A stretch of 64,000 nt of DNA. Source: Opitutales bacterium (GTDB lineage Bacteria > Verrucomicrobiota > Verrucomicrobiia > Opitutales > JAJFLR01). Below are positions 7,998 to 27,301 of this stretch, piece by piece (within the stretch, counting starts at the first letter, position 1; each line of letters begins with the position of its first letter). The notes beneath the pieces were generated by a model, which saw only the letters and a list, made by a program, of their open reading frames with translations, did not search any database and was not told the origin of the DNA. The stretch covers positions 1,558 to 65,557 of the forward strand of contig JAJFLR010000097.1 in the NCBI GenBank assembly GCA_021772565.1, read 5' to 3'. The position numbers and the translations under genes are program-made.

Positions 7998-8095
7998 TCT
8001 TTATTTGTCATAAATGGCAATTTAATACCATTCTCTGGTGTCGGTACGCTATCCTTGAGTAGTTGGTGCATCTACAGAGGACCTGTAACAACCTC

Positions 8096-8701
8096 TTATT
8101 CATCAGGGTATAAATCCCTTTTTACCAACTCACCTTTTTCCATCTCGACAATGGATTTAATTCTGCCGTTTGGGTACCAGGCTTTATTTATTCCATCTGG
8201 CTTACCATCGATAAAATGCATCTCTGTTGCCTTTTTCCCATTTTCGTGCCAACTGGTAAATGTTCCGGAGATTTCTCCCTCAATTATTTGAGCCTTTGAC
8301 TTCATCTGTCCATCGGTATACCATCGAATACGCCCTCCATGAGAGATGCCTTTTACAAAATGTTCTTCGACTTCCTTTTGCCCATCCTCATACCAGCCCA
8401 GAGATAAACCATGCGCCCGACCCTCTTTAATGGCGATAAGCACCTTCTGCTCACCACCCGGATAGTTTTCAACAAGATTGCCACTAAAAACCTCATCAGA
8501 GTCTTTTATAAATAAGGTACCATCCCTCAAATCGAGTTGCTCTCTGGTAAGTTCATTCGAAATTTCTACTGTAGCTTCAGTTTCAAATTCAGGTTGATAA
8601 TGTTGCCAGTAATACCAAATACCAACAGTGGAAATTAGCATTACAACAAGCAGCCACAGAAACAGGTTTTTAAATGGTTTTTTTAACTGCATTGTTAACA
8701 A
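8096..8701 (-). CDS. MORN-variant repeat protein (YwqK-like), single N-terminal TM
   Basis: Repeats GWYEDGQK, RWYTDGQMK, SWHENGKK, AWYPNGRIK. Confidence 0.85.
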   Translation of the reverse strand: MLTMQLKKPFKNLFLWLLVVMLISTVGIWYYWQHYQPEFETEATVEISNELTREQLDLRDGTLFIKDSDEVFSGNLVENYPGGEQKVLIAIKEGRAHGLSLGWYEDGQKEVEEHFVKGISHGGRIRWYTDGQMKSKAQIIEGEISGTFTSWHENGKKATEMHFIDGKPDGINKAWYPNGRIKSIVEMEKGELVKRDLYPDE

Positions 8702-8793
8702 GTAGCTCTTTACCTCATCTTGCGACGGTGTCTGTGGGAATCAAAAAATCATCAGTCAAAGTAAACCCGGATTTTGCACTAGGTAAACTTAAC

Positions 8794-9633
8794 TCATTTG
8801 ACATGCAGTTGGTAGAATTGGGGGCTTTTATCACTTTCATCAATTGATTCAGGTAACACTACGTAAATATCCTCATTATTCACATTAGGAGCAAGGTACA
8901 CAAAAAATGGGTTCGAGCCATCGGAACTGAGTGAAAAGCTCACATCTTTATAAGTGACAAGATCGTCTGATACTTTTAATGTATAAGTACGTCCCTCGAT
9001 CGCAAGAAATTGCAAACGGGCAAAAATCCCTACTGTTTCTATTATATCCAACCTGAAAGTCTCACTCTTCGTAAAGGCATAGGTGCCGGCGACATACTCC
9101 ACATAATTGCTAACGCCATCGCCATCGATATCACCTTCAGGACTAACATCGGCTAAAGTTTTAATTGCGTCATTTGGATTAAAATCAATCAAGTCTTTTT
9201 CCCATTGATCGGGTAGACCATCGCCATCGCTGTCGGCGCCCAGAGTCAGATCCAACCGTGTGCGGCCTCCCGGCTCGCCTATGGTATTATTTCCACCCAT
9301 AACTTCGAGCGGCACAAAAACATCATTACCAATGTTCACGCGCACCGTATAGGGCATAGTTGGACGCAATGCTGTTGGAACATAGAGAGTTTGGGTTATA
9401 CCCGCATCCATAGGAATTTTAAGCGAATAGTTTATTTCAGGCCCAATTGAAGAACTTATTGGCCCTGTGACAATATCTTTAGAATTACTGCTCAATGTAA
9501 TTGAAGCTGTAACAGTCAATGGAGTTCCTTTAGCATCACGTACGATTCCAAATACCTCATGATGAGGTGCTGGCGGAAATGCCGAGGCTGTTACGGTGAA
9601 TATAAATAAGACTATAAAGATTTGAATTTTCAT
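8794..9633 (-). CDS. Secreted protein with Asp-rich Ca-binding (DxDGDG) motifs and Verrucomicrobia-type C-terminal domain
   Basis: Signal peptide ending ASA; DSDGDGLPDQWE and DIDGDGVSNYVEYVAGT; C-terminal GRTYTLKVSDDL...FYQL; its ATG directly follows the upstream TAA. Confidence 0.8.
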   Translation of the reverse strand: MKIQIFIVLFIFTVTASAFPPAPHHEVFGIVRDAKGTPLTVTASITLSSNSKDIVTGPISSSIGPEINYSLKIPMDAGITQTLYVPTALRPTMPYTVRVNIGNDVFVPLEVMGGNNTIGEPGGRTRLDLTLGADSDGDGLPDQWEKDLIDFNPNDAIKTLADVSPEGDIDGDGVSNYVEYVAGTYAFTKSETFRLDIIETVGIFARLQFLAIEGRTYTLKVSDDLVTYKDVSFSLSSDGSNPFFVYLAPNVNNEDIYVVLPESIDESDKSPQFYQLHVK

Positions 9634-12600
9634 TTAATTTCCTGAGTATGAATAGGTTTCGAGGTAGAGTTCGATATCCTTCACCGATTCAATGAATATC
9701 TGCAAACCAACCTGCGGATTGCTCCTCAAGGTACTTCCCGGAATGACAATTTTCCAGCGACTGTTCCAAACCGATCGACCAATGAGACGGCTGTTTGTAA
9801 ATCCCGGTGCACTACTGAAAACAGTACCGCTTGGTACTGCTCGAAAAGCTTGATGTTTGCGAATAGCAAAGGCTTCCTCACTGAGTGAATCAGATGATAG
9901 AAATCCGGTATTTGTAGAAAAATCTGTATTGCCAATATTGAATGGTAATGGAATAGCCTGGTCATCGACACTCCAGCTACGCACAGTCGATACATCTCCC
10001 AATGGTGGTGAGCGCATCGAATCAACTCCTGTCGGAATCAGATAAATATGCGGCGTTGCACTGAGTGCATCTGGGTCCAGGAAGCCGAGATCCGGATCAG
10101 CGGGTGATGATGCACCAATTTCACTCAAGGTACCCCCAGTCGATGTCGGCGAATCCATGCCGACATAACCCTTAAATGCGATACCGGATGATCGAATTTT
10201 TGTGGCAAATGTACTAGGACTGAATCCGTGGTCGCCACCTGCCAGAGGCTCACCAAAAAAGTTGAAACCCTGAGCAATTGTCGTTTGGAATGGAATGACC
10301 AACCCAGGCACCGGTAGTCCGTCCTGATCAGCAATTTGCATACAGTAGCGGCGCACGTCAGGATCCTCAAGCACGTCACTCATACGGCTGGCTGCAAGTT
10401 TATCACTCCAATCCCCATCACCCGAAGCAGCCGGAATAATTCTGAAGTTTTCTCCACGTAATGAAAATTTAGTGCGATAACGATCCGGATTATTGAATCC
10501 GAGGCGTGTCTTTGCCACAGACCAGTCACCCTCCATTTGCGCCAGCACGCCAGAAAGCCCCGGGTCGCCCGTGTTTGAGGCAGTAAACTGAGGATTTCCA
10601 CTTTTATCAACTACACCAAGTGCACGACTTTGAACAATACTGTCAAAAAATGAAGCGGCTGCGCTACTGCCTGAAGTATGTAAAAGTCCCGTTTCATAAT
10701 CATAGGCGCGTGCTGCAAGGAAAGTGTAACGCGCTGCAAGATTGAAAAGCACACTGTATTTCTCAAGCGACTCATCACGAAATACGCGAAAAGCTAGGTC
10801 ACGAGTTCGATAGCCCTGAACGATAGCAGCCGCACGCTTGTTAAAGGTTTCACGTGCAGCCTGAACGGCAAACCCCCGTGCTTTAATTTCTTGAAAATTA
10901 CGCTGCGCCTGATCGTAAACACGCAATGCCTGATCCACGGCTGTTCGTAGTCCTCGAAAATCTGATAGCGCATCGTGTAAATCTTGAATAAGTTGTTTGC
11001 TCTGAGCATCCCAAAATGCTTCTTCCAGTTGTACTTCCAATAGTCGTTCTGCATCGACAATATTACTATCAATTTTCTCCAAGTCTGCTTCACTTGCAGA
11101 TGAAGCTGCCAGTAAAGCCGTTTTAATCCCAACACCTATTAACTTGGCTGCTCCACGACCTGGAGAAGTAGCGTCATTTGAAAATCCCAGAGTTGTGGGA
11201 AAAAATTCCGCAGCACCATCAGAAGCATCAATAGCAATTTCTGCTGCTATATCTGACGTGCGCTTAACTATAGAAAGCGCCAACTTTGAGTTTTCTATTT
11301 CTTTGATTTTATCATGAGCTGCTGACGTTAGTGACACTGCTTTTGTTCGTGCGGTTACCTCTGCATCATAGAGGTCAATTAAAGCGTTCATGTCATCTTT
11401 GAGATTTTCATAGTTGTCCATCGCCTGCCTGAGTCGTTGTCTCGCAGACAGAAGATCAGAAATTACACTCTGCATTTGTCCAGGATGGGCGCGTCGGCCA
11501 GTCCACGTTGCAGGTTTCACGACATCACCCTTGGCGTTGATAGTGAACATAACAGATTCTCCCAAGTTCAGTGTAGAGGAATTTGCATCAGCAAACTCTG
11601 GATCCAGAAATAATTCATACTCTCTGGATTCAAGAGTGGGATCAAAGAACAACTCCGGAGTCTCAACATAAGCAAAGTGCAGTAAATCAGGTCCAGTATA
11701 GCCCTGAGAATAGGTCTTGCCCGGACCTATATCATCGGGATAAGGCGTACCGTAGATCCCTATTAATTTGTTTTCAAAAGCGGTCAACTGAGATTCAATA
11801 GCAGCTCTATTTTCTGCAATACTGTTGTCCTGTTGCCGCAGAAATTCGGTTGAACTTTTTGCATTGTTAAACGCAAAAACCGCATTTTTAAGAGCACCTA
11901 CCGCTCTATCATAAACCTGTTCATAGTGCGTCTTGCCCGCATCGATTTCATTGGGTGAAATATCGAAACTGACCGCCCCTTTTGCAAGGCCTAACGGATT
12001 CAGTCGGGCGTCTGCATTATCAAGCGTAATCTGTATCAACTTGGCATCACCAACTACTTCGTCAAGTTCAGGTACTGTCGTTCGATCAACTTTTTCAATG
12101 CCTTCATTAACATTGTCTTCCTCAGGCAAAATTGAGTTGGCAGTCACCCAGTGGAAATAAGCTCCCTGGCCGGATCGACTAGCCCATTCATCTGTGCCCC
12201 ACCTGCGTGAAGTACCCGTTCTATCATTTGTCTGTCCATCACGTAAATGGGTCCAGCCAGCATTTTCATTCGCTGTAAATTGCTGTCTGTAGGTTAAATC
12301 GAGAACCTGATTCGCAGTTCGAGTAAGTGCTGCAGCTGCAGAGGCAAACTTACGCTCATCCTGATAATCAATTGATACCGGTTGTCCCAAGACAGAGACC
12401 GCTTCAACACGGGGTGTCCATGAAAAATGGTCGTTGCTTAACAAAGTGTAATAAACCTTCAATGCAGTGAGATAGTGACCATAGGCATCGCCATGCCCCT
12501 GAGGAAACTGTACCGTAGCATCAACAGCATCCGCTGCACCATCAACGTTGAGATCCTGTATATTATAGTTCAGCGAATAGATCGGTTCTCCTGAATTAAT

Positions 12601-15600
12601 TCCACCGGTAAAATTCCAGACAAGACGATTGTAGACAGGTGATACCACAACACCCGGCTGTAGATTATCATCTCGTCCGCGCAGTAGTGCTAGTTCTTCA
12701 TCGAGAACCGTGGCAAGTTGCCCTTTAAAAGCAAATAAGGCTGTATTAAATTCACCAAAGTCACCTCCCTCGGTGTCAAAGGCAATCGTTGGGTTGGATG
12801 CATCGGCAAATGCCTCATTACCCAGTAATTGGTAGAGGTCATTTAAATATCCGGCAGCGAGCAGCAGTGCGTCGTTGGCAGCCGGTACATTGAGTGGTGG
12901 GTTTCCACTGATGCTGAGGCTCTTACCTCTTCGTAAAACTGTTTCATAAATTTCTATCAGTCCAAAGTCGTCAATATTTTGGAGATTAAGTGCGATATCA
13001 CCCTCCCAGCGAGGCCCTGCTTGAGTGAGCAGAGAAACATCAGTATTAACATTATTGTTGAACAAATCTGTTACACGCTGTTCAAATGGATTGATACCAC
13101 CCAATACACGTTTGATCCAGCCCGGTGCCAATTGGGCAGGCAACCAACTCGACCAATTGCCAGCAGTGATAGCATTACCGCTGGTAGCAAATGCGGCGGC
13201 CGTTCCGGCTTTGGCTCGATAACGCATTGTGAAATAATTATCAGTCAATGTTTCTATAGTGGCACCTTCAATTGTATGAGTCGACTTGGCCACAACACCA
13301 TCGCCACTCTTGGCACCATCAGTGAGATCTTGCCAGCCTGAGAGGTCGACTGTTTCAATGCGGCCTTCCAGACGTAGATTAATTGTCGACTGGGAATTTA
13401 CATCGGATAGTGTATAAAGTTCAACAGTAACCGTATTGTCACCGGCGACAATTGCCTCAGGCATAATTCTAAAAACACGCTCTAAAGAATTTATATCACC
13501 GGGAGGTGTGGTAGCGACACTGTTTTCACGATTGGGAACATTCCAGACAGCTGCTTCTGTTCCATTAACATAAACAATAAGACCGTCATTATTTTCCAGG
13601 TCGATACTTAAAAATGCCTCAAATGGTAAAGGCAAAGCTTGTATAAATTCACGGCGAAGAACTGCATAGGGAATAGAAACTCCATTTTCTTCATTTCCAG
13701 CTCCATCATTAATGGTGATCTGCTGAGCGGGTAAATTGACCGTTTGCCATCCTTCTCCTGAATCATCAAAATCAACCGCCCTGAATTGAGCAATAATGGT
13801 ATCTGCAGGGTTATTGAAGAGTTGCCACGAACCATTTCCAACAATCGGTTGTGTCAATGCTGCAAAAGTGTAAATAACTGGCGGAAATCCCGCTACCGGT
13901 TGTGCTTTCAACCAGGCAAATTCAAAATCAGCCGGATCACCGGCATAATCTCCTGAATGTCGTAAATTCAGTTTCTCATCCAACGGATTTGCTGATTGAA
14001 CAATTTTTAATTCACCACGGTAAAGCGGTGCATCCACTTTGAATACGTGCAATGATACAGGCTCTGCAGGGGGAGTGAAGGCTGCACCATCTCCACTTGC
14101 TAATACAACATAACCGGTCCCTCCTCCAATAGCAGTCACGGCATAAGAATCGACTGCGGTATTTTCACTATTTACTTCAGCTAATTGTGTTGGACCAGCT
14201 TGAGTATTAAGTGCCGGATTTACAACAAACACACCTTTGCGTTTTGGATCTTCAATAAAAGTTTCCAGTGTTGTTGATAGTCCATCTATTGCAGTATGCC
14301 ATTGACTTTCCAATGAACCCCCTACTGCTACGAGTGCCTTACTATCAGTGACATCCTTTGCACTCATCACATTGAGCAGAAAGTAGTCTTCACCAAATGG
14401 AGCATCGATAAATTCACCAATGAAGACAAGGCTACCGAGTGGTCCGATATTGGGATCAAAAAAGAGTCGCTGACTAAGGTGCGGTGGCAGGTTGGGGAAA
14501 TATGTTTTGCCGAGAAAATCACTGGTCACCAATGAATCCGGTAATTTATCCAAACCACTTTCAGAAAGTGCAAAAGTCTTTTTCCTTGTAGGATCGAAGA
14601 GTCGCAAACTCGGTGTTTTTTCATCCACGTCACCCCCAATTGATTGTTGATAGAGCACACGCATGCTGGTTTGGCCACGCACAGCTGGCAGTCCACGTTT
14701 TGGTAGAGCCAGACTTTCAGAAATATTTAATATTGGTGGAGAACTCGGCCAAATTGGCGTAAATACCACATCAGCGGGAATGCCTGTTATCGGATCTCCA
14801 TTAAATCCACCTGCTGCATTCATTCCATTGGTAAAGGGTCTTAAATAAGGTACAATTGTGCCAACGTCCGGTTTTGTAAGTCCCGGAAAATCAAACTCTG
14901 CTTGCGTCTTGTAAAAATAGTGCATGACGAAGCTTTTTGCCTGATCGGTAACTGTACCGACATTGACTCCATCTGCATGGGGGCCACGATAAATCCATGT
15001 AGATCCTTTACGGTCCACGTAGGTGAACCTGTCATAATGTTCAATACCTTCAGAATTTGGGGCAAAATTTGCCGGCACGTCAGTCGGTGCACCGACTTCT
15101 CTGTTCCTTACAATATTATTCTCGTCCACCGGCAACTGAATGAGAGGCAGCGGTAAAGGTGCCTGTAATATCGCGCCAACAGTGCCTTCATAGTCGAAGG
15201 TATGTGCGGTATTTTCACGAACGACACGACGGATGACCATTGCCGGTAAATCATCTTCTGCAGTATAGTCCACCAACACATAGGGCTGAGACGATGTTGG
15301 GATATTTAAATCATCACGAAGCACATAGGCGACACCGCCGCTCATAAGCGCATGTTCTTCATTTGGATTATAACCGGGTAGTTGAGGATCTGCCTGTCGA
15401 TAAATGGATCCGGTAGCGGCAATACCTAATTCTCCTGACCCATCATTGCGGGCAAGAATAATTTCATCATTGAGATTTCCATCATCTGGATCGGTTACCG
15501 GCCATTGCAACTTGTATCTAATAACGAATCTCGGCCAGTGATTTACTGAAAAAGTGGACGATATAGGCTGGTTCATGGCATACCACCAAATAACAAGTTC

Positions 15601-17631
15601 ATCGTTACCGGGAAGTGCATTGACTGGTATAATTACGCCGTTGCCTGCCTGTTCAAACCCATGGGTAAAAGGATCAAAGTAAGCTCCCGGATTATAGGCG
15701 TTACCGAACTCCTCACGAATATGGCCGACCATAACGGACGAATTGGAAGGTGCATTAACACGTGTTCCAACGAGTGCAGTAAAGGGATTGTTCTCAAAAG
15801 AGACCCGAGCAGTTTCACTAATTGCTCCACCCTGCGTCTTCGTCACAATACCCGTAACAAGATTGATAGTGTAATCTGTGGTTATTGCATAGGAAGCTCC
15901 TGTGTCCGGATCAGCAAGCGATACATTGCTGATATTTGTGTAGCCGGTGCTGAATTGATCGTTTTCATCAAAAGTTCCCAATACAATCTGTGAGCCATCG
16001 AAGCTGCCGATTTCGGATTGGAGGATAGAGAAGACCCGCTCAAACCAGATTTCCTCATCGATCGTGTAGCGAATCAGTGCACGTCCTGTTGGGTCGGATG
16101 GACTGACAACCGTATAAAAAACATTTTGCGGGGTCAGTTTAGCGTGAGTTCTGGTAGGATCATCCTGATAGGCGATTACCGGATTATCCACAGAGTTAAG
16201 CTGTACGCCTGTTGCAATGGATGCATCACTACCCTCCGGTCGCGCATAGATCGAGTAAAATTCGCTCAACTCTTCAATGGTTGGAGTCGGCATAGTGGCC
16301 GCACGATACTCCTCCGGCCACTTGAAAATGTAGCCCACATATTCCTTAGGCCAAAATAGCTGTGCCACTCCCTCTTCCGTCCAGTATATAAGCACCTCAT
16401 TACTCTGCTGCTCAGGCAGTGGCCCGTCGCCATCCAGATCAAATGGGGAAGTTTCTCTAATAGCGTAAAGTGTGCGCTTTGTTCCACCCAGTGACAGATG
16501 CTCAAACAGATAAGGATCGCTTTGATCGCTAAGATTTTTGATCACTACAGCTTTCAAACTTTCATCGTTATCTGTAGGCGATACTTTCTCACCAATGGAA
16601 ACTTTAAGTTCCTCCGGCCGGGTCTCCTGAATGACATCAACAATTTCAAAACCCAAATGATCGCGGTAAATTCGGTCTGGCTCACGTAAATCACCGAGAA
16701 ATTCTACAAAGACACGACCTTCTATATTATAAGCGTGAATTGAGTTGTCCAAACTGTCGAACCAGAGAGTGCGTACTTCAGGAGGTAAGTTCAGTCCCGG
16801 GTTTTGCGGATCGTACGGATTTTCAGGATCAAAATCAAATGTATTAGATTCCGCAACTTCTTTAAGGAATAAGCTATTGTAAGCAATGTTTACATCGCCC
16901 ACACGTGACTCCGGAACTTGCACGGGCGGCCCGTTAAAATCACGTTCAGTCCAATAGATAGTTTTCGTCTGCTTTACCGGAGAGCCGGAAACATTGTAGG
17001 TCTGGGTAAAGCTGTTACCAGTTACCCGCTCCTTCCAGTCAATTGTGATGACACCCGGTTCCGTAGCAAAGACTCTCTCTGCGTGTGGACTCCAATAAAA
17101 TCTGCCTGTTGAAGAATTAGCGGGTTCCTTGAAATAAAATTCGGCCTCAGCAAATACTTTTGGGTCGAGGACGCTGCCATCCGGTTTACGATTTGGTCTT
17201 AGGATTTCTGATCCCATTGAAAATGAGACCAGTTGCACAACCATAGTGCGACTCATTTTAACACCGACAAGCTGGATAGTTTGGTTAGTCAGTTTGGTTT
17301 CTCCATCCAAATCAAGAGGTGTAAAGGAAGGGCTTAATATTGTCCCCGGTGTTCCGGCTACTTCACTAGTGCTGCCGGCAACAATTGTGCCATCAATTTT
17401 TATCCGTGTCGCTTGCCAGCCGCCAAATACCGTACCGCTTTCAAATTGATTGCCGGTACGAGCTGTTGGTCCTGGTGGCTCGGGGTCAGGAGGTACTCCA
17501 GCCTCGCTGAAGACATTGCGTACACTGTTCTCAATTTGAGGAAGTTGTGCAGAAAGATTGCCTGCAAGTGCCAGCATACCGGTTAAAATGAGGACTTTAG
17601 GCTTTAGTTTCATAGATGCAGAGTATTTCAA
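9634..17631 (-). CDS. Giant secreted protein (2665 aa) with putative Tc-toxin TcA-like C-terminal pore/translocation region
   Basis: Intact ORF with Sec signal peptide. Beta-rich N-terminal two-thirds, long helical region with hydrophobic hairpin (AAEFFPTTLGFS...AAKLIGVGIKTALLAA), YSVLFNLAARYTFLAARAYDYE and terminal WKIVIP...VKDIELYLETY. ORF is secure; the TcA similarity is a motif-level inference. Confidence 0.7.
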   Translation of the reverse strand: MKYSASMKLKPKVLILTGMLALAGNLSAQLPQIENSVRNVFSEAGVPPDPEPPGPTARTGNQFESGTVFGGWQATRIKIDGTIVAGSTSEVAGTPGTILSPSFTPLDLDGETKLTNQTIQLVGVKMSRTMVVQLVSFSMGSEILRPNRKPDGSVLDPKVFAEAEFYFKEPANSSTGRFYWSPHAERVFATEPGVITIDWKERVTGNSFTQTYNVSGSPVKQTKTIYWTERDFNGPPVQVPESRVGDVNIAYNSLFLKEVAESNTFDFDPENPYDPQNPGLNLPPEVRTLWFDSLDNSIHAYNIEGRVFVEFLGDLREPDRIYRDHLGFEIVDVIQETRPEELKVSIGEKVSPTDNDESLKAVVIKNLSDQSDPYLFEHLSLGGTKRTLYAIRETSPFDLDGDGPLPEQQSNEVLIYWTEEGVAQLFWPKEYVGYIFKWPEEYRAATMPTPTIEELSEFYSIYARPEGSDASIATGVQLNSVDNPVIAYQDDPTRTHAKLTPQNVFYTVVSPSDPTGRALIRYTIDEEIWFERVFSILQSEIGSFDGSQIVLGTFDENDQFSTGYTNISNVSLADPDTGASYAITTDYTINLVTGIVTKTQGGAISETARVSFENNPFTALVGTRVNAPSNSSVMVGHIREEFGNAYNPGAYFDPFTHGFEQAGNGVIIPVNALPGNDELVIWWYAMNQPISSTFSVNHWPRFVIRYKLQWPVTDPDDGNLNDEIILARNDGSGELGIAATGSIYRQADPQLPGYNPNEEHALMSGGVAYVLRDDLNIPTSSQPYVLVDYTAEDDLPAMVIRRVVRENTAHTFDYEGTVGAILQAPLPLPLIQLPVDENNIVRNREVGAPTDVPANFAPNSEGIEHYDRFTYVDRKGSTWIYRGPHADGVNVGTVTDQAKSFVMHYFYKTQAEFDFPGLTKPDVGTIVPYLRPFTNGMNAAGGFNGDPITGIPADVVFTPIWPSSPPILNISESLALPKRGLPAVRGQTSMRVLYQQSIGGDVDEKTPSLRLFDPTRKKTFALSESGLDKLPDSLVTSDFLGKTYFPNLPPHLSQRLFFDPNIGPLGSLVFIGEFIDAPFGEDYFLLNVMSAKDVTDSKALVAVGGSLESQWHTAIDGLSTTLETFIEDPKRKGVFVVNPALNTQAGPTQLAEVNSENTAVDSYAVTAIGGGTGYVVLASGDGAAFTPPAEPVSLHVFKVDAPLYRGELKIVQSANPLDEKLNLRHSGDYAGDPADFEFAWLKAQPVAGFPPVIYTFAALTQPIVGNGSWQLFNNPADTIIAQFRAVDFDDSGEGWQTVNLPAQQITINDGAGNEENGVSIPYAVLRREFIQALPLPFEAFLSIDLENNDGLIVYVNGTEAAVWNVPNRENSVATTPPGDINSLERVFRIMPEAIVAGDNTVTVELYTLSDVNSQSTINLRLEGRIETVDLSGWQDLTDGAKSGDGVVAKSTHTIEGATIETLTDNYFTMRYRAKAGTAAAFATSGNAITAGNWSSWLPAQLAPGWIKRVLGGINPFEQRVTDLFNNNVNTDVSLLTQAGPRWEGDIALNLQNIDDFGLIEIYETVLRRGKSLSISGNPPLNVPAANDALLLAAGYLNDLYQLLGNEAFADASNPTIAFDTEGGDFGEFNTALFAFKGQLATVLDEELALLRGRDDNLQPGVVVSPVYNRLVWNFTGGINSGEPIYSLNYNIQDLNVDGAADAVDATVQFPQGHGDAYGHYLTALKVYYTLLSNDHFSWTPRVEAVSVLGQPVSIDYQDERKFASAAAALTRTANQVLDLTYRQQFTANENAGWTHLRDGQTNDRTGTSRRWGTDEWASRSGQGAYFHWVTANSILPEEDNVNEGIEKVDRTTVPELDEVVGDAKLIQITLDNADARLNPLGLAKGAVSFDISPNEIDAGKTHYEQVYDRAVGALKNAVFAFNNAKSSTEFLRQQDNSIAENRAAIESQLTAFENKLIGIYGTPYPDDIGPGKTYSQGYTGPDLLHFAYVETPELFFDPTLESREYELFLDPEFADANSSTLNLGESVMFTINAKGDVVKPATWTGRRAHPGQMQSVISDLLSARQRLRQAMDNYENLKDDMNALIDLYDAEVTARTKAVSLTSAAHDKIKEIENSKLALSIVKRTSDIAAEIAIDASDGAAEFFPTTLGFSNDATSPGRGAAKLIGVGIKTALLAASSASEADLEKIDSNIVDAERLLEVQLEEAFWDAQSKQLIQDLHDALSDFRGLRTAVDQALRVYDQAQRNFQEIKARGFAVQAARETFNKRAAAIVQGYRTRDLAFRVFRDESLEKYSVLFNLAARYTFLAARAYDYETGLLHTSGSSAAASFFDSIVQSRALGVVDKSGNPQFTASNTGDPGLSGVLAQMEGDWSVAKTRLGFNNPDRYRTKFSLRGENFRIIPAASGDGDWSDKLAASRMSDVLEDPDVRRYCMQIADQDGLPVPGLVIPFQTTIAQGFNFFGEPLAGGDHGFSPSTFATKIRSSGIAFKGYVGMDSPTSTGGTLSEIGASSPADPDLGFLDPDALSATPHIYLIPTGVDSMRSPPLGDVSTVRSWSVDDQAIPLPFNIGNTDFSTNTGFLSSDSLSEEAFAIRKHQAFRAVPSGTVFSSAPGFTNSRLIGRSVWNSRWKIVIPGSTLRSNPQVGLQIFIESVKDIELYLETYSYSGN

Positions 17632-17654
17632 GTAGAGATTAATAGTAGCCTTTT

Positions 17655-19166
17655 TTATTTTGCAGATGCATCAAGCAATGTATCCAACCTGCTTTCAAGT
17701 TGCGTCATTCGTGATTTCAATTCCGCATTCTCATTCTGCAACGTTTTTATTTGCTCTAAATTTTCAATAGACTTGGTATTTAATTCTTTAATTGCATTAA
17801 CGCTTGCCCAATGAATAGGATCAACTTTCATACTTAAATATACACCGTCAACAGCACTCTCAAGTGTCCCATTAACCGCTTCCGGAATAACATCTAGTAC
17901 ATCCTGCGCAATAAATCCGATCTCCTCTCCATCAGAAGTCAGCCCCAAATCATTATCATCCTTGTAACGGAATTTAACAGGTTGCAGCTGTAGGATAGCA
18001 TCAAGGCCTCTTTCATAAACCCGAATATCCTGCTTCAACCGTGAATCCGAGAATGTTTGCCAAGATGACCCACCCGAGCTCTTTCCAGCGTTGCCAGTCA
18101 CCGTAAATTTAGTATCATTGGAGCCTCCCAAGCCAGATACTGGCCAAAAAGATGCAATTCGTGCATTTGTAATCGTATTTTTAATTTGTAGCACTTGATT
18201 AGAATTCCCATTTACACTGAAACTCCCCTGTGGTCCAGATACTAGAATACTAGATAAATTTAGTTTGTTAGCAGTCACCGCACTATTAGCGATTTCACTA
18301 TTACCAACAGCGTTTGCCGCAATCTCACTTGCTCCAACGGCATTGGCTGCAATATCAGAGGCCGTTATTGAATTATCAGCAATATCAACACTCCCTATTG
18401 TGCCATTACGAATATCACTTCCTTGAACAGAATTATCAACAATTTCACTTGTGCCGACAGCATTGGCTGCAATTTCGCTCGCACCTACCGCATTGGCAGC
18501 AATTTCAGCTGCTGCCACAGCATTGGTTGCAATATCAGAGGCTGTTATTGAATTATTTATAATTTCGCTTGAGCCAACAGCATTATCTGCGATTTGGGCA
18601 GAACCCACCGCATTGCCGGCAATCTTCCCTACACCGACCGCTCCATCTGCAATTGTATCTGAAAACTTTGCATGTTCCGCAACAACAGCAAAGGGCGATG
18701 CCAGCAATGCGAGCCGTGGTGAAATCTCACCGGGTGTTGCAGGTGGATTTAATACAGTTAATCCTAAAAAACGCTCCTTTCCATTAAATGCACTGAGTAA
18801 TTTATTTTGCGCAACTGAACCCGTTAGTGGAAGGGGGTCACCATCGGCAGTTGCTATGACTTCTCCTTCACCCAAGCGGACAGAGAAAAGGCCTGTTCCT
18901 GTCACAGTTACAATCTGTTTTTCGGCCCAGATCAAATTACCCCCACTCTGGCTATCCCAAATACGAAAGCGGATTTCGAAGTTGGCAGCAGTACCTGTAG
19001 TGCCAGGACCACCTGTACCCGTTATTGGACCGCCATTGCTGTTGAGTAACTGTCCCTGATAATCAATAAGGGCCGGAGCTCCTGCAACCTGAGCGTTGAG
19101 GATTGCACCGAAGTGTGCATAGAAGAATAAAGTCAGGATGACTGCTATTTTATTTTTCGTTTTCAT
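17655..19166 (-). CDS. Secreted tail-fibre-like trimeric adhesin with C-terminal peptidase S74 intramolecular chaperone
   Basis: Signal peptide; N-domain IDYQGQL...FRIWDSQSGGNLIWAE...GLFSVRLG; 10-aa repeats; SDSRLKQDI, IGFIAQDV..VIPEAV, NAIKEL plus coiled coil. Confidence 0.88.
   Translation of the reverse strand: MKTKNKIAVILTLFFYAHFGAILNAQVAGAPALIDYQGQLLNSNGGPITGTGGPGTTGTAANFEIRFRIWDSQSGGNLIWAEKQIVTVTGTGLFSVRLGEGEVIATADGDPLPLTGSVAQNKLLSAFNGKERFLGLTVLNPPATPGEISPRLALLASPFAVVAEHAKFSDTIADGAVGVGKIAGNAVGSAQIADNAVGSSEIINNSITASDIATNAVAAAEIAANAVGASEIAANAVGTSEIVDNSVQGSDIRNGTIGSVDIADNSITASDIAANAVGASEIAANAVGNSEIANSAVTANKLNLSSILVSGPQGSFSVNGNSNQVLQIKNTITNARIASFWPVSGLGGSNDTKFTVTGNAGKSSGGSSWQTFSDSRLKQDIRVYERGLDAILQLQPVKFRYKDDNDLGLTSDGEEIGFIAQDVLDVIPEAVNGTLESAVDGVYLSMKVDPIHWASVNAIKELNTKSIENLEQIKTLQNENAELKSRMTQLESRLDTLLDASAK
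18271..18653 (-). repeat. Intragenic 30-bp/10-aa tandem repeat (IAxNAVGxxE), about 13 units
   Basis: IADGAVGVGK IAGNAVGSAQ IADNAVGSSE ... IAANAVGASE ... IANSAVTANK in the translation. Confidence 0.9.
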
Positions 19167-19221
19167 AATTTCGGATTCTGATTTTGGTGATTCAATTGTT
19201 AAATTTTTTAATTACTAGAAG

Positions 19222-20982
19222 TTATTCAATTAAAGTAGCTATATCGGATACACGATAGAGAATAAAGGTGCCCTTTACTTTGATCGGTTGAGCACGCAGA
19301 CCAGTGATTGTCTCCTCATAATCGCCACCAAGTATGGTGCTGCCCCAGTTGAGGTCTGAAATACCGAGCTCATCCGGGTCGGCCTCCCATATCAACTTGA
19401 TGTCGCGATTTACAGTATAAGATTCATCACCGGCAAGTAATGGTGTTGTGCTAAACTGTAGATCTTTATTATCATGGTCAGGGTGATAGGTATGAACAAA
19501 GGGGTTTGTTTGCGCATCATGTGCCAGAACTGAACTGAGTGTGACTTCACCTGTCAAACCCAGGTCACCCGTTGCGACTACTTTCTCGTCGAGTGGAAAA
19601 CTTGCACTGGACAGACGACGCGCATTAGCCAGTTTCTCCGGATCAAGCTCGGACTCTTCTGCGGCAATGATGGTATTTCCAGAGGTGTTCTCGCCAATAT
19701 AAACCTGCTGCTGTAAATTTACTGTGCCATTATCTGAGCGATGGAGAATTATTCTCAATGGAAAGGCGGAAGGTGCGTCGGCATCTGCATCGGTCGTGAC
19801 ATCGACAGTCGCCGTACCATCACCCACAGGAGCCGGAGCTGCAGTTATTTGATCAACCTGGTTGACTATTGCTGTGCCAACCCAAAGGCCGGAAAGTGAT
19901 GTTTTAACAGCTCGCACCGGTAGATCGACACGTGAAATTTTTTCAGAATCAGTGACTTGAAGAATGCTCTGAAAAACATCATCGGGATTACCAGTCATAG
20001 TTGAACGGTCGACCGCGATAACGATCTCGACCTCTTCTCCTGCTTCGAGATCGAAAGTTTCAGCAGAATCAAAATCTTCAAATTCGAAATTGCCGGTGGT
20101 TGGATCCAGTTCACCGCGTATTTGCAGAGGGACGGGTCCAGCATTTGCATCCTCTCCAGTAGGTGGCACAGCCGATACTGCAGGAGTCACTGTAGCAGTG
20201 ACCTGACTGTTTGTAAGATTTTTTATTTTAAGTGTGGTAACAGCGCCTGTATCGCGAAAATTGAGTCCTGCGTTACCTGTCGTCACACGCAACGGACCGT
20301 AGAAGTCGGTAAATTGCGAACTTTGTATCCAGTAGGCCTGGCCACGTGAAACGGCTTTTAGACGCGGTGCAGTTACCCGCACGGGATTCGATTCAAGTGC
20401 TCCGCCGTCATAGAAAAATATATCGGCTGCCGTGCTCAAGGTGTTGCTGAAAGAGAGGAAGCGCTCGAAGTTGCGGTCGGTTACACTATCCGGTGTCTGC
20501 ATAGGAAAGCCGAAAAAATTGAGTCCCGAGCTGGACCAGGAATAATTCGGTGGTGTCGGTTTTCCAGTTAAATTTAATGTAATATCGGGTGATGTATCAG
20601 CAACTTTTATAAGATAGGTACCATTTGCCACAAAATTGCTTATAGTAGATTCTGTAGGCTTCCCACGTTTCCAGATCAACCATTGATTATCAGACTGTAC
20701 CGGTGTAGCCGGTGATTGAGTGAACTGTGTGCTCGATGCAGTTGTATTCCAGTACCAGACCTCTTCAATAGCGGTTTCGCCCGACAATAGATCATCGATG
20801 GACCCGTGTGAAACATCGAGTGAAAGCCAAATTGCATTCCAGCCCGCTTTCAGAGGATAGTCTTCGGAAACCCATTGCGCCAAACCTCGGCTTGTAGCGC
20901 TAAACACCACAACTATGGCAAATATATATCTCAAAAAAATGAAAAAACTGCTGTTCCTGGAATAGCTGATGTGTGTTCCCAT
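19222..20982 (-). CDS. Secreted beta-rich hypothetical protein, first gene of the fibre/TcA-like operon
   Basis: Signal peptide ending GLA-Q; PLKAGWNAIW motif; C-terminal NPFVHTYHPDHDN. Confidence 0.8.
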   Translation of the reverse strand: MGTHISYSRNSSFFIFLRYIFAIVVVFSATSRGLAQWVSEDYPLKAGWNAIWLSLDVSHGSIDDLLSGETAIEEVWYWNTTASSTQFTQSPATPVQSDNQWLIWKRGKPTESTISNFVANGTYLIKVADTSPDITLNLTGKPTPPNYSWSSSGLNFFGFPMQTPDSVTDRNFERFLSFSNTLSTAADIFFYDGGALESNPVRVTAPRLKAVSRGQAYWIQSSQFTDFYGPLRVTTGNAGLNFRDTGAVTTLKIKNLTNSQVTATVTPAVSAVPPTGEDANAGPVPLQIRGELDPTTGNFEFEDFDSAETFDLEAGEEVEIVIAVDRSTMTGNPDDVFQSILQVTDSEKISRVDLPVRAVKTSLSGLWVGTAIVNQVDQITAAPAPVGDGTATVDVTTDADADAPSAFPLRIILHRSDNGTVNLQQQVYIGENTSGNTIIAAEESELDPEKLANARRLSSASFPLDEKVVATGDLGLTGEVTLSSVLAHDAQTNPFVHTYHPDHDNKDLQFSTTPLLAGDESYTVNRDIKLIWEADPDELGISDLNWGSTILGGDYEETITGLRAQPIKVKGTFILYRVSDIATLIE

Positions 20983-21396
20983 AAAATTTGTTAATTATGC
21001 TATATTCTATAATGTATATGCATAACAGAACTGATTATACTAATAAAATAACGAAGAATAGATTATAGATAATATTCAAAATATCATTTAGCAACTTTTT
21101 TTTAACTTTTTTTTTATGTGGTTATAATTGTGAGTAATAAAGCCCTTTATAGCACTTAATATAAATAATTAGTAGATGGTATGACATTATAAATTACTTC
21201 CATAGCCCGAAGGATTAATCTAAACTAGCCCAAAGTTAAAGGAATAAATATTGATTTAATCTACAAAATGGTTGCGTTGCATTTTCAGTTGGGAAATCAC
21301 AGATTATAGCATCTGCCATAAATCATTTCGTATATTATAAAATTCAGAACAAAAAGCCTGAATGATAATACAGTTATCAAAAATTGAAAATTAGAT

Positions 21397-21524
21397 AGAT
21401 TGCCGCGACCTGCCTCAGCAGGTCTCGCAATGACAAACGCACTAACAATTGTCATCGCGAGGAACAACGTGAGCCGACTCCGCCATAGTAGCCTAGAGGC
21501 TACGACGGCTGGACGAAGCGATCC
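21397..21524. repeat. Nested palindromic repeat elements
   Basis: agattgccgcgacctg...caggtctcgcaatgaca and inverted partner tgtcatcgcgagg...gaagcgatcc, with internal gtagcctagaggctac hairpin. Confidence 0.65.
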
Positions 21525-21585
21525 ATGACTATTTAATTCGAGTAGAACATTAGCCTAAGTCCATTATAAACGAAAACACTTATGA

Positions 21586-21770
21586 TAATCGCTATTGATG
21601 GTACTAACTCGCCCTTTCAGGACTTGTTAACTTATAAACTTTTTTATCCAAGGGCTTGCACACCCTGGGCTGAATTAGAGCAGCCTTTCAGGCATGCAAA
21701 ATACCTCATTGATTACTATTCCAGTAACCCAATTCCCCACCCCATTTGCAAATTTATCAGCATTGGATTG
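21586..21770. repeat. Dispersed palindromic (REP-like) repeat, copy 2
   Basis: Direct, diverged copy of 7691..7870 (ggtacta..tcgccctttcagg.cttg..aacttataa; gcctttcaggcat.caaaatacct.attgatta). Confidence 0.8.
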
Positions 21771-21792
21771 TTGATATTGAATTTATTCAAGA

Positions 21793-23217
21793 TCAGCTTA
21801 AATTTTTCAGCACCGCTTTAGCTGCGTAGTACCCACACATTCCATGGACACCGCCGCCGGGGGGAGTCGATGCACTGCAGATAAATATTCTGGGATTCGG
21901 TGTAGTATATGGATTTAATCGAAAAACCGGTCGTGTGAAAAGCTGCCCCAAATCGCTTGATCCACCGGTAATTGCCCCGCCTACATAATTGCTGTTGTAG
22001 TTTTCAAAATTTACCGGTGTAAATTTATGCCGTTTTAAAATCGTATCCTTAAATCCGGGAGCAAATCTTGCAATCTGATTTTCAATACGATTGGTCATGT
22101 CCACGTCACAGCCATTTGGAACATGACAATAGGCATAACCGGTATGTTTTCCGGCAGGAGCTCTAGTATCGTCAAAGTTACTTTGCTGGCAAACAATCAA
22201 ATACGGTTTTTCAGGAATCTTCCCGTTTGAAGATGCTGCTTCAGAAATTTCTATTTCTTCAAACTTGCCTCCTATGTGAACAGTTGAGGCTAGTTTGCAT
22301 CTTTCATTAGCCCATGGAATTTTTTCTGACAACGCCCAATCCATTTTAAAAGTAGCCGGCCCATATCGAAATTTAGACAAACGGTTAAGGTAATTGGCCG
22401 GAAGATTATTGCCGGCAACTTCGATGAGTTGATTCGGTGAGGTATCAAAAATAATTTTGGATTTTTCGGGAAACTCTGCCAGTGATTTAATTGGTCGATT
22501 AGTTTCAATTGTACCACCCAGAGATTTAAAATAACTGGCAAGCGCATTGGTAATAGCACTTGAACCCCCTTTGGCAACCGGCCATTCGACAAGGTGTCCG
22601 GTAATAGAAAAGATCAGCCCGATGGCCGCGGAAGGCATTTTAGCTAATGGGAGAATTGAATGAGCTGCACAACCGGCAAATAGCGCCCGAGCTTTATCAT
22701 CCTTAAATAATTTTGCCATGCCTTTAGCCGATCTAATTCCATAAAAACCAAATCGGGCCATGGTAAACGGGTCAGTCGGAATACTAAGTGGTCCCATCAA
22801 ATCTGTCATCAATGTTTTTGGATTTTTCAGAAAGGGTGAAATCAGTCGCTGCCATTTTTTTGCATCTGAACCCAATTGTTCGGCAGTCTTCTCGATAGAT
22901 TTTTCTAAAAAAACTGCATCTTTATTATCCAATGGATGAGCCACAGAAATTGGTGGATGAATCCATTCTAATCCATGTTCGGAAAGCGGCAATTGTGAAA
23001 AATAGGGTGAGAGGTATCCCATCGGATGAACGGCGGAGCAGACGTCGTGGTTGAAACCGGGAAGGGTTAATTCTGCATTTCGGGTGCCGCCGCCAATCGA
23101 ATCTGATGCCTCAATAACAAGCACAGACAAATTTTCCTGAGCCAATTTAATAGCAGCGGCAAGACCGTTTGGCCCGGAACCGATAATAACTGCATCATAT
23201 GAATCTTTGTTGTTCAT
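21793..23217 (-). CDS. Phytoene desaturase-family FAD-dependent oxidoreductase
   Basis: GSGPNGLAAA dinucleotide fold, HDVCSAVHP, C-terminal CSASTPPGGGVHGMCG. Confidence 0.9.
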   Translation of the reverse strand: MNNKDSYDAVIIGSGPNGLAAAIKLAQENLSVLVIEASDSIGGGTRNAELTLPGFNHDVCSAVHPMGYLSPYFSQLPLSEHGLEWIHPPISVAHPLDNKDAVFLEKSIEKTAEQLGSDAKKWQRLISPFLKNPKTLMTDLMGPLSIPTDPFTMARFGFYGIRSAKGMAKLFKDDKARALFAGCAAHSILPLAKMPSAAIGLIFSITGHLVEWPVAKGGSSAITNALASYFKSLGGTIETNRPIKSLAEFPEKSKIIFDTSPNQLIEVAGNNLPANYLNRLSKFRYGPATFKMDWALSEKIPWANERCKLASTVHIGGKFEEIEISEAASSNGKIPEKPYLIVCQQSNFDDTRAPAGKHTGYAYCHVPNGCDVDMTNRIENQIARFAPGFKDTILKRHKFTPVNFENYNSNYVGGAITGGSSDLGQLFTRPVFRLNPYTTPNPRIFICSASTPPGGGVHGMCGYYAAKAVLKNLS

Positions 23218-26170: not shown

Positions 26171-27301
26171 ATGAAATTTAAAATAAACAAAGATCATTTT
26201 TTAAATGGCCTTCAACAAGTCTTAAATATTGTTGGTACCAAGTCCACTATGCCCATTTTAAATAATGTCCTTATTGAAGGTGATAAAGACACAATCAGAC
26301 TCACGACGACTAATTTGGATATTGGTGTAACTTGTCGTGTGAAGGCTGATATCTCAGAGGCCGGTGGAATTACCCTGCCTGTTAAGAAATTACATGATAT
26401 TGTCAGAGAACTTCCAAGTATTGAAATTGAATTGGAAGTTTTTTCAAATAATCAGGTTAAAATAGCATCAGGTTCATCACTTTATAGAATAATGGGTATT
26501 GAGAAAGATCAATTTCCGCCCACTGCGAAATTTGATGACAAGAATCATTACTTACTTCCGCAATCAGATTTACTAAAAATGTTGAAGTGCGTTTCCTATG
26601 CACAGTCTACCGATGAATCACGTCAACTTATGAATGGCGTCTATTTTAATTTTGAAGAAGGTAAATTGACTTTGGCTGCAACAGATGGAAGGCGATTAGC
26701 TCTTATAAGTAAAGAGATAGATGTGACAGAAGATAATGTTGGTAGTTTAATATTACCTGCAAGAACTGTGTTGGAATTAGAGAGATTACTGGATCAGGGT
26801 GATAAAGTTAAAATTTCTTATAATGAAAGGCAAGTTGCGTTCGATATTTATACCTCTACAGAATCAGATGAGACAGGTATCTTGGACTCTGTACATCTTT
26901 TGTCTAAAGTGGTTGAGGGTAAGTATCCAAATTACAGACAGGTCATCCCACAGGAGACAGATCGCTACATTAAGGTTAATAGAGAAATTTTACTCAACAG
27001 TGTGAGGAGATCTGCACTGGTTGCGACCGATAAAAATATTTCCGTTACCTTCAAGATGGCTGATAATTCAATTGAAATTTCCGGATCCAGTGCAGAAATT
27101 GGAGAATCTCAGGAGAAACTTGCGGTAGAGTACAGTGGTTCAGAAGTCAGAGTCGCTTTCAATCCTTTCTTTTTTATGGACACATTAAAAGTATTAACAC
27201 GAGATGAAATAATCTTTGAGTTTAAAGATGAAATGAGTCCAGGTGTCATTAGGACACCAGATAGTTTTTTATGCGTAGTTATGCCATTGCGCTTAAATTA
27301 A
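26171..27301 (+). CDS. dnaN: DNA polymerase III beta sliding clamp
   Basis: [30 protein letters not shown]-terminal VVMPLRL. Confidence 0.97.

Follow-up and report, generated by a model that had tools for sequence, protein, structure and literature searches.

What does a protein of more than 2600 residues do in a verrucomicrobial genome when its C-terminus recalls the channel of insecticidal ABC toxins? The question is raised by a giant open reading frame (ORF) on the minus strand (9634-17631) of a 64,000-nucleotide stretch of DNA from an Opitutales bacterium (assembly GCA_021772565.1, contig JAJFLR010000097.1, positions 1,558 to 65,557), referred to below as the window. An earlier note on this DNA, made from the sequence alone, had described at the C-terminus of the encoded protein (hereafter the giant) a signature of TcA, the subunit that carries the translocation channel in these toxins. 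The TcA channel is among the best understood protein-injection devices and is under development as a delivery tool; to our knowledge, few cell-cell weapons are known in Verrucomicrobiota. Our results supported the TcA-like interpretation at the level of the predicted fold, and we hold, with a probability of roughly 0.85, that the C-terminal module of about 800 residues is homologous to the channel and funnel of TcA, though very distantly. On this reading the giant carries a variant of the TcA translocation module, placed in a cassette and a phylum that are both new for it.

A predicted channel fold at the C-terminus

The structure of residues 1466-2665 was predicted with AlphaFold2 (AF2) from an alignment of 49 sequences, protein numbering being model numbering plus 1465. 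The model (mean predicted local distance difference test score, pLDDT, 79.9; predicted template modelling score, pTM, 0.68) displayed a helix-loop-helix followed by a beta domain, and all features of the giant and of its cassette neighbours (see below) lie on the minus strand. Upstream of the channel were found a helical-repeat domain resembling tetratricopeptide repeats (TPR; model 35-417, residues ~1500-1882, window 11986-13134), a helix (model 437-495) and a conserved, poorly structured Pro/Gly-rich stretch (model 496-586, residues 1961-2051, window 11479-11751), where regular structure is sparse and pLDDT partly low. By its position, this stretch may be the counterpart of the TcA linker. 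The predicted channel then begins with a descending helix of 90 residues (model 587-676, residues 2052-2141, window 11209-11478) that aligns to TcA pore-forming domains. It is followed by a tip loop of 14 residues with a conserved ExxPxxxG...D pattern (model 677-690, residues 2142-2155, window 11167-11208), lying in the most hydrophobic part of the hairpin, and by an ascending, or return, helix of 159 residues (model 691-849, residues 2156-2314, window 10690-11166). This is the succession of long helices, hairpin and return coiled coil that the earlier note had proposed. The return helix is topped by the collar motif Y..lFDLAARY.YLAA.AYDYETG (window 10687-10758), and the chain ends in a beta-rich, funnel-like domain (model 916-1197, residues 2381-2662, window 9646-10491), the predicted counterpart of the TcB-binding domain.

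Fold searches with this model pointed to TcA. Foldseek, run against 350,542 PDB chains, returned 21 matches at E<=0.001, and all 20 rows listed were TcA chains (XptA2, XptA1, TcdA1 in its prepore, intermediate and pore states, TcdA4, TcaA-TcaB and YenTcA) with E-values of 9.4e-9 to 3.6e-5, a probability of 1.00, 654-1126 aligned columns and 9-12% identity. Rows other than TcA began at E 2.6e-2. Likewise, of 48,161 representative chains compared by VIA-align, TcA chains came first and second, and the top 18 rows of its second pass were TcA. The fold alignments spanned TcdA1 residues ~2005-2516, which take in the channel together with the TcB-binding domain, and in VIA-align the terminal beta domain lay inside all full-length TcA alignments, down to the last residues. 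When the last 626 residues were compared with the ESM Atlas, 22 of the 30 neighbours from named clusters carried the TcB-binding domain family PF18276; the clusters with this family scored 0.93 and 0.92 and had 207 and 200 of 256 features in common with the giant. The pore-forming domain of TcA, to which each protomer contributes a pair of very long antiparallel helices tipped by a hydrophobic loop, was thus recognized at fold level on the predicted monomer, and the fold of its C-terminal TcB-binding domain was recovered both by the fold alignments and by the ESM Atlas neighbours.

Sequence-level links were examined against a set composed of sepA from Serratia entomophila pADAP, used as positive control, and 120 TcA homologues. 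Local comparison by hhalign of 263 family C-termini (last 800 residues) with TcA C-termini (last 700 residues) gave a single match of 27-28 columns (score 42.7-42.9, P 4-5e-4, probability 31-34%). It paired the collar motif of the family with TcA AIYYQFYDL..SRCLMAq, at the equivalent site atop the return helix. Controls made with two other TcA windows, reversed TcA and the reversed family scored 15.3-23.5 (P 0.16-0.74). The motif that the note had given for TcA, YxxxYDLAxxxCLMAExAY, is exactly the one segment paired here (P 4e-4), and the PNIFG loop named there corresponds to the PxxxG tip common to both families. The tip consensus reads d.vPNIyG.A.GG in TcA and e..P...G...D in the family of the giant; [DE]xxPxxxG was present in 144/263 family members and 115/120 TcAs, and the exceptions listed retain P...G. 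Tip hydrophobicity was equal, the median of the maximal Kyte-Doolittle value (most hydrophobic 19 residues within 45 residues of the tip proline) being 1.24 in the family and 1.27 in TcA. In their last 25 residues, 237/263 family members and 119/120 TcAs have a loose D[IVL]x[LIV] pattern, to which we give little weight since it is too degenerate. Spacings were greater in the giant: 151 residues separate the tip proline from the collar motif, versus 123 in SepA, and 370 residues run from the collar motif to the C-terminus, versus 243, so that the terminal domain is longer than that of SepA, as the note had stated for canonical TcA.

The motifs named in the note were all found in the giant ORF, at nearly the positions first assigned to them: AAEFFPTTLGFS at the tip (residues 2140-2151, window 11179-11214), YSVLFNLAARYTFLAARAYDYETG at the collar (residues 2292-2315, window 10687-10758), and the terminal motifs GRSVWNSRWKIVIP (residues 2618-2631, window 9739-9780) and VKDIELYLETY (residues 2650-2660, window 9652-9684). 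Nine positions, namely P680, G684, D688, Y837, D846, W1161, P1166, D1187 and Y1195 (model numbering), were invariant or at least 90% conserved among 49 sequences. Judged from these alignments, the motifs are conserved in the family and are not chance resemblances.

Several observations weigh against homology with TcA. The SepA control matched all four Pfam families expected of a TcA (TcA_TcB_BD PF18276 at 3.6e-51, Neuraminidase PF18413, ABC_toxin_N PF20220 and VRP1 PF03538), whereas the giant matched no Pfam family, none of these four included, with nothing for PF18276 at E<=1. The same Pfam search gave no match for 17 family members, and PF18276 was not found at E<=1 in a six-frame search of the bacterium's own genome. 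A 17-member profile run against PDB sequences gave 48 matches, none of them below E 0.067; every one was a designed protein or a coiled coil. The hhalign match was limited to its 27-28 columns at a probability of 31-34%, and in global mode hhalign aligned nothing between the family and TcA. The ESM Atlas recognition value was 1910, below the tool's mark of 2300. The Foldseek TM-scores were low (0.12-0.21, with a root-mean-square deviation of ~50 A), because the monomer model arranges the long helices and domains unlike the assembled toxin. The C-terminal structure is itself a prediction, made for a monomer, and its assembly into a channel is putative. Finally, the N-terminal 1200-residue model gave no TcA row in three fold searches, which barely test single domains. 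For the comparison of the last ~800 residues that the earlier note had suggested, the structural half favoured TcA, which topped both Foldseek and VIA-align, and the search of profiles against sequences yielded no Tc family. Outside Pfam, no significant match for the giant was recorded in NCBIfam, PHROGs or PADLOC, and phmmer with the last 888 residues against PDB sequences retrieved one designed coiled coil at E 4.4.

These negative results bear on a rival reading in which the protein forms no channel at all. The giant could be a surface adhesin or fibre whose helical hairpin serves as a rigid stalk, its resemblance to TcA being convergent and due to long antiparallel helices and a common beta-sandwich. 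The absence of Tc families from the hidden Markov model searches is in line with this, as are the N-terminal two thirds, which resemble Ig/cadherin-like adhesin arrays (see below), and the middling Z values that models with long helices reach with many unrelated coiled coils. Yet, convergence would have to account for TcA coming first in two independent fold searches with hairpin and beta domain aligned in the same order, for a sequence match that falls on the corresponding collar site and whose controls were clean, for a PxxxG tip common to both families with equal tip hydrophobicity, and for PF18276 on the language-model neighbours. We therefore regard a channel-less adhesin as improbable, and retain distant homology with the TcA channel and funnel.

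N-terminal array, putative export signal and family

The ORF encodes 2665 residues if its TTG start is used, which is the length that the note had reported. An ATG at codon 7 (window 17613) gives a 2659-residue product with a typical signal-peptide start, and a database protein 99% identical to the giant (P0002) has 2659 residues and begins at that same methionine. The codon-7 ATG is probably the real start, and the shorter length is then the more likely one. Residues 7-28 (window 17548-17613) form a signal-peptide-like N-terminus with a basic start, a hydrophobic core and LSA before Q. This was read from the sequence; a crude heuristic was positive for 151 of 218 family members starting with methionine and for 5 of 113 TcAs.

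The region downstream is occupied by an array of beta-sandwiches of immunoglobulin (Ig)/cadherin-like type (residues ~100-1250, window 13882-17334), as judged from an AF2 model and fold searches. The model of residues 100-1299 was all-beta (pLDDT 84.8, pTM 0.61), and Foldseek related it to Ig/cadherin-like arrays such as those of Nup210, contactins, cadherins, GhpA and the Sap S-layer protein; the rows returned by VIA-align were of this type too. The alpha-helical shell of TcA would thus be replaced in the giant, since residues 100-1299 are predicted to be all-beta and Ig/cadherin-like. In agreement with this, no match to PF03538 or PF20220 was obtained, and the only helical domain preceding the channel is the TPR-like one of ~380 residues. 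The neuraminidase-like domain PF18413 gave no Pfam match either, and N-terminal fold rows were only Ig/cadherin-like in searches that are weak for single domains. Between the array and the TPR-like domain lies a variable insert (residues ~1251-1450, window 13282-13881).

Conservation along the giant was assessed by BLAST against 242 homologues. It was nearly complete for residues ~1450-2665 (covered in 236-242 of them) and high for residues 650-1250 (223-241), and it fell to ~150-178 for residues 150-550. The variable insert was the least conserved stretch of the family, residues 1250-1450 being covered in 105-147 homologues against 232-242 in the flanking regions.

The family is large, wholly unannotated and patchy in Verrucomicrobiota. 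With residues 1750-2665 as query, 2388 of 8000 scored candidates were retained at E<=1e-3. The best 120 of these displayed 45-99% identity over the whole query region, and the named members among them were nearly all recorded as 'hypothetical protein' from Verrucomicrobiota. A HMMER search with the last 1200 residues against 1.84 billion cluster representatives (50% identity) gave 1622 matches at E<=1e-3, 916 of them at E<=1e-30. At least 594 genome stretches carry relatives (594 of 599 pattern matches in a scan of 185,579 species genomes), and the family occurred in 39/301 sampled Verrucomicrobiota genomes, representing 31/149 genera.

A spread beyond this phylum, suggested by metagenome-assembled genomes labelled Klebsiella, Bifidobacterium or Rhodospirillaceae, was not accepted. 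The proteins concerned are members at 47-51% identity with the same cassette of neighbouring genes (see below), and the labels look like mis-assignments because the loci retain this verrucomicrobial cassette. The loci concerned were L023, L025, L026, L030, L032, L043, L056, L081, L083 and L084. Among viral structures (BFVD), Foldseek with the C-terminal model found one match at E<=0.001, an uncharacterised protein of 1032 residues labelled Mimivirus LCMiAC02 (A0A481Z1I0; E 2e-6, 957 columns). Either a further TcA-like module, not part of any known toxin, or an artefact of binning may explain this match.

A five-gene cassette without linked Tc partners

Does the giant work with the partners of TcA? 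It proved to be the third gene in a tight same-strand cassette of five. The first gene encodes a 586-residue exported protein of no known family (window 19222-20982) with an invariant NPF.HTYHPDHDN block. The second encodes a 503-residue tail-fibre-like protein with a signal-peptide-like start (window 17655-19166), which ends in a Peptidase_S74 intramolecular chaperone (PF13884, 8e-17) and matches PHROG tail-fibre families down to 1e-24. Downstream of the giant come a 279-residue exported protein with bacterial TSP3 repeats of calcium-binding type (window 8794-9633; PF18884, 8e-6), whose start abuts the stop codon of the giant, and a 201-residue MORN-repeat protein that carries a hydrophobic anchor at its N-terminus (window 8096-8701; PF07661, 3.6e-13). 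Conservation of this arrangement was evaluated on 80 related loci from the scan of species genomes, counting only loci with enough flank. On the same strand beside the giant, the 586-residue protein was found in 48/51 loci, the tail-fibre-like protein in 52/56, the TSP3 protein in 52/64 and the MORN protein in 34/58, and the full order was kept in 27/42. Oleiharenicola lentus and strain DG1235 are among the carriers of a homologue accompanied by the cassette. Genes flanking the cassette were ordinary ones, e.g. those for an MscS-type channel, a CDP-alcohol phosphatidyltransferase, dnaN and a HAMP/PAS sensor.

TcB and TcC, whose linkage or co-occurrence with TcA defines a Tc/ABC complex, were sought at three levels. 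BLAST with SepB and SepC found nothing in the ORFs of the 80 related loci, of the window or of a paralogous locus. The bacterium's own genome (3.57 Mb in 124 contigs, 95.3% complete) gave no match to TcdB_toxin_midN or SpvB, and none to midC in a search whose control also matched nowhere. Across the phylum, TcdB_toxin_midN occurred in 11 of the 301 genomes, only 3 of which also carry the family, so that the other 36 of the 39 family-positive genomes had no midN match. The frames with midN (in G081, G065, G155 and eight other genomes) were mostly ~2000-2400 residues long; others measured 422-1460, some of them probably cut at contig ends.

The giant might still be the A subunit of a canonical ABC toxin with TcB and TcC encoded elsewhere in the genome, for instance by RHS-repeat giants. 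Large frames with 45 RHS_repeat matches are indeed present in its own genome, all on other contigs (C30, C31, C87, C110 and C111), and midN domains do exist in the phylum, one of them sharing a contig with a family member (G081, ~70 kb apart). Against this stand the missing midN and SpvB matches in the own genome, the scarcity of midN in family-carrying genomes, the failure of SepB and SepC to find relatives at the loci, and conserved neighbours that are four unrelated exported proteins. The shell families matched by SepA are likewise missing from the giant, and its N-terminus is signal-peptide-like, unlike those of TcAs. With shell, partners and N-terminus all different from those of TcA, this reading was rejected as very improbable. 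The RHS-repeat open frames of the genome reach 5033 residues, and none is linked to the cassette.

Our preferred reading, a TcA-like translocation module that acts independently of TcB and TcC, leads to the following scheme, whose steps we infer largely by analogy, together with target, cargo and the roles of the partners. The giant would be exported via Sec. The hairpins of several copies (TcA has five) would come together as an alpha-helical channel that inserts its tip into a membrane, and the C-terminal domains would form an entry funnel. The casing would consist of the ~1300 residues of Ig/cadherin-like beta-sandwiches and the TPR-like helical domain, with no TcB-TcC cocoon. The tail-fibre-like protein is presumably trimeric, and the cassette proteins would most likely provide targeting and whatever docks onto the funnel. 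That the giant oligomerises into a membrane-inserting channel, an exported pore or translocator working with its cassette partners, appears somewhat more probable than the contrary.

The main rival to this scheme places the same TcA-like module in the envelope of the producer itself. A periplasmic oligomer with its tip in the producer's own outer membrane would act as a conduit or anchor exporting or displaying cassette proteins such as the tail-fibre-like one. The N-termini of all five cassette proteins resemble signal peptides or anchors, that of the MORN protein being a membrane anchor, and no cargo-like toxin domain was found in the cassette, all of which would suit such a role; so would the several copies that are common per genome, with variable N-terminal and insert regions. 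However, the family is patchy (39/301 genomes, 31/149 genera), and therefore an accessory weapon or adhesin fits better than an envelope component. Tip hydrophobicity and loop motif also equal those of TcA, which enters foreign membranes. We hold a role in the producer's envelope to be unlikely, while noting that present data do not separate own from foreign membrane.

A broader proposal can be built on the preferred reading of an exported channel, and is put forward tentatively. The family may represent a lineage of the Tc injection apparatus that is independent of TcB and TcC, i.e. a Sec-exported, Ig-cased 'A-only' nanosyringe or pore with four accessory proteins, including a phage-type trimeric targeting fibre. 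Free-living aquatic and soil Verrucomicrobiota might use it against protist grazers, algae or bacteria, and it could be near the ancestral state of the channel of insecticidal ABC toxins. Should the TcA-like channel of this family be real, Tc machinery would be more widely distributed and more varied in architecture than is known at present, its origin would become more accessible, and an unstudied interaction system would be indicated in Verrucomicrobiota.

Further features of the cassette were recorded. Profile searches found no PDB or Pfam relative of the 586-residue protein, and its ESM Atlas neighbours were verrucomicrobial hypothetical proteins only; its NPF.HTYHPDHDN block has the looks of a metal-binding motif. 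A second copy of the giant resides in the same genome (contig C25; 2559 residues, 44% identical over the last 1200 residues) with a TSP3-like paralogue and a 586-like gene as neighbours. On contig C47 (L003, 1516-2244), an ORF of 242 residues matches the giant at 50% identity over the return helix, the collar motif and the beginning of the end domain, then gives way to unrelated sequence; it looks like the remnant of a third copy. The 457-residue ORF next to it is presumed to be a transposase. G+C content was 42-46% in the cassette versus 32-36% in its flanks (window 8000-22000), and likewise 42-46% versus 33-37% at the paralogue locus (L004, 12000-20000). This excess could reflect acquisition from a relative of higher G+C content or the amino-acid composition of the proteins. 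The dnaN gene (DNA polymerase III beta subunit, three Pfam domains) lies at window 26171-27301, ~5 kb from the cassette, and cumulative GC skew displayed a local minimum near 20-22 kb of the window; a replication origin may be close to the cassette.

Comparison with known systems

Full-text searches (supplementary files aside) found no paper in which Verrucomicrobia are connected with Tc/ABC toxins or with proteins like TcA; one Tc-related full text named this phylum, solely for teneurin-like YD proteins. The pentameric DotA-IcmX protochannel of Legionella, reportedly likened to TcA, was dropped as a lead, a search of passages in 10.1101/2025.06.23.660953 having found no mention of Tc toxins or TcA.

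Two groups of proteins resemble one portion of the giant each. Ig/cadherin-like surface proteins, such as the grappling hook GhpA of Aureispira and the Sap S-layer assembly domains, are comparable to its beta-sandwich N-terminal two thirds, but have neither the long hairpin of helices nor the funnel domain. Further pore formers of alpha-helical type (the tripartite alpha-pore-forming toxins AhlB/SmhB, IpaB and colicin-type coiled coils) scored below the TcA rows; they cover the hairpin alone and not the terminal beta domain, and have no sequence motif in common with the giant.

The closest known proteins are the TcAs, i.e. TcdA1 and TcdA4 of Photorhabdus, XptA1 and XptA2 of Xenorhabdus, TcaA-TcaB of Yersinia, YenA of Y. 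entomophaga and SepA of S. entomophila pADAP, which form homopentamers around a central channel of 10 helices. Their hallmarks, according to PMC6795518, are a pentameric bell with a pore-forming domain, a linker and a TcB-binding domain, and a shell of helical and beta domains with a trefoil knot by which the N-terminus is fastened to the last domain of the shell. According to PMC7861908 and PMC6795518, the TcA channel as catalogued so far always occurs with a TcB-TcC cocoon, and the catalogued loci are distributed among Proteobacteria (96.4%) and Firmicutes (3.2%), Verrucomicrobia being unmentioned (PMC7861908).

The giant and TcA are comparable in overall size (~2400-2700 residues) and display the same order of modules: a stretch at the place of the linker, an antiparallel pair of very long helices, a PxxxG tip of the same hydrophobicity, a collar with the motif Y/F-D-L...A-Y and, at the end, a beta domain whose model superposes on the TcB-binding domain. 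Identity in structural alignments is ~10-12%, and in comparison with SepA the return helix is 28 residues longer and the end domain 127 residues longer. The N-terminal ~1300 residues are predicted Ig/cadherin-like beta-sandwiches instead of an alpha-helical shell, and the N-terminus is signal-peptide-like, in contrast to that of TcAs. The locus carries neither linked TcB/TcC genes nor the holin/lysozyme release genes found upstream of sepA, and the hosts are Verrucomicrobiota, whereas nearly all catalogued Tc loci belong to Proteobacteria and Firmicutes. Since it differs in shell, in partners and in release, the giant falls outside the ABC-toxin system as defined. As compared with TcA, the family appears to retain the channel and funnel, to replace the shell, to add a Sec signal and to swap the partners.

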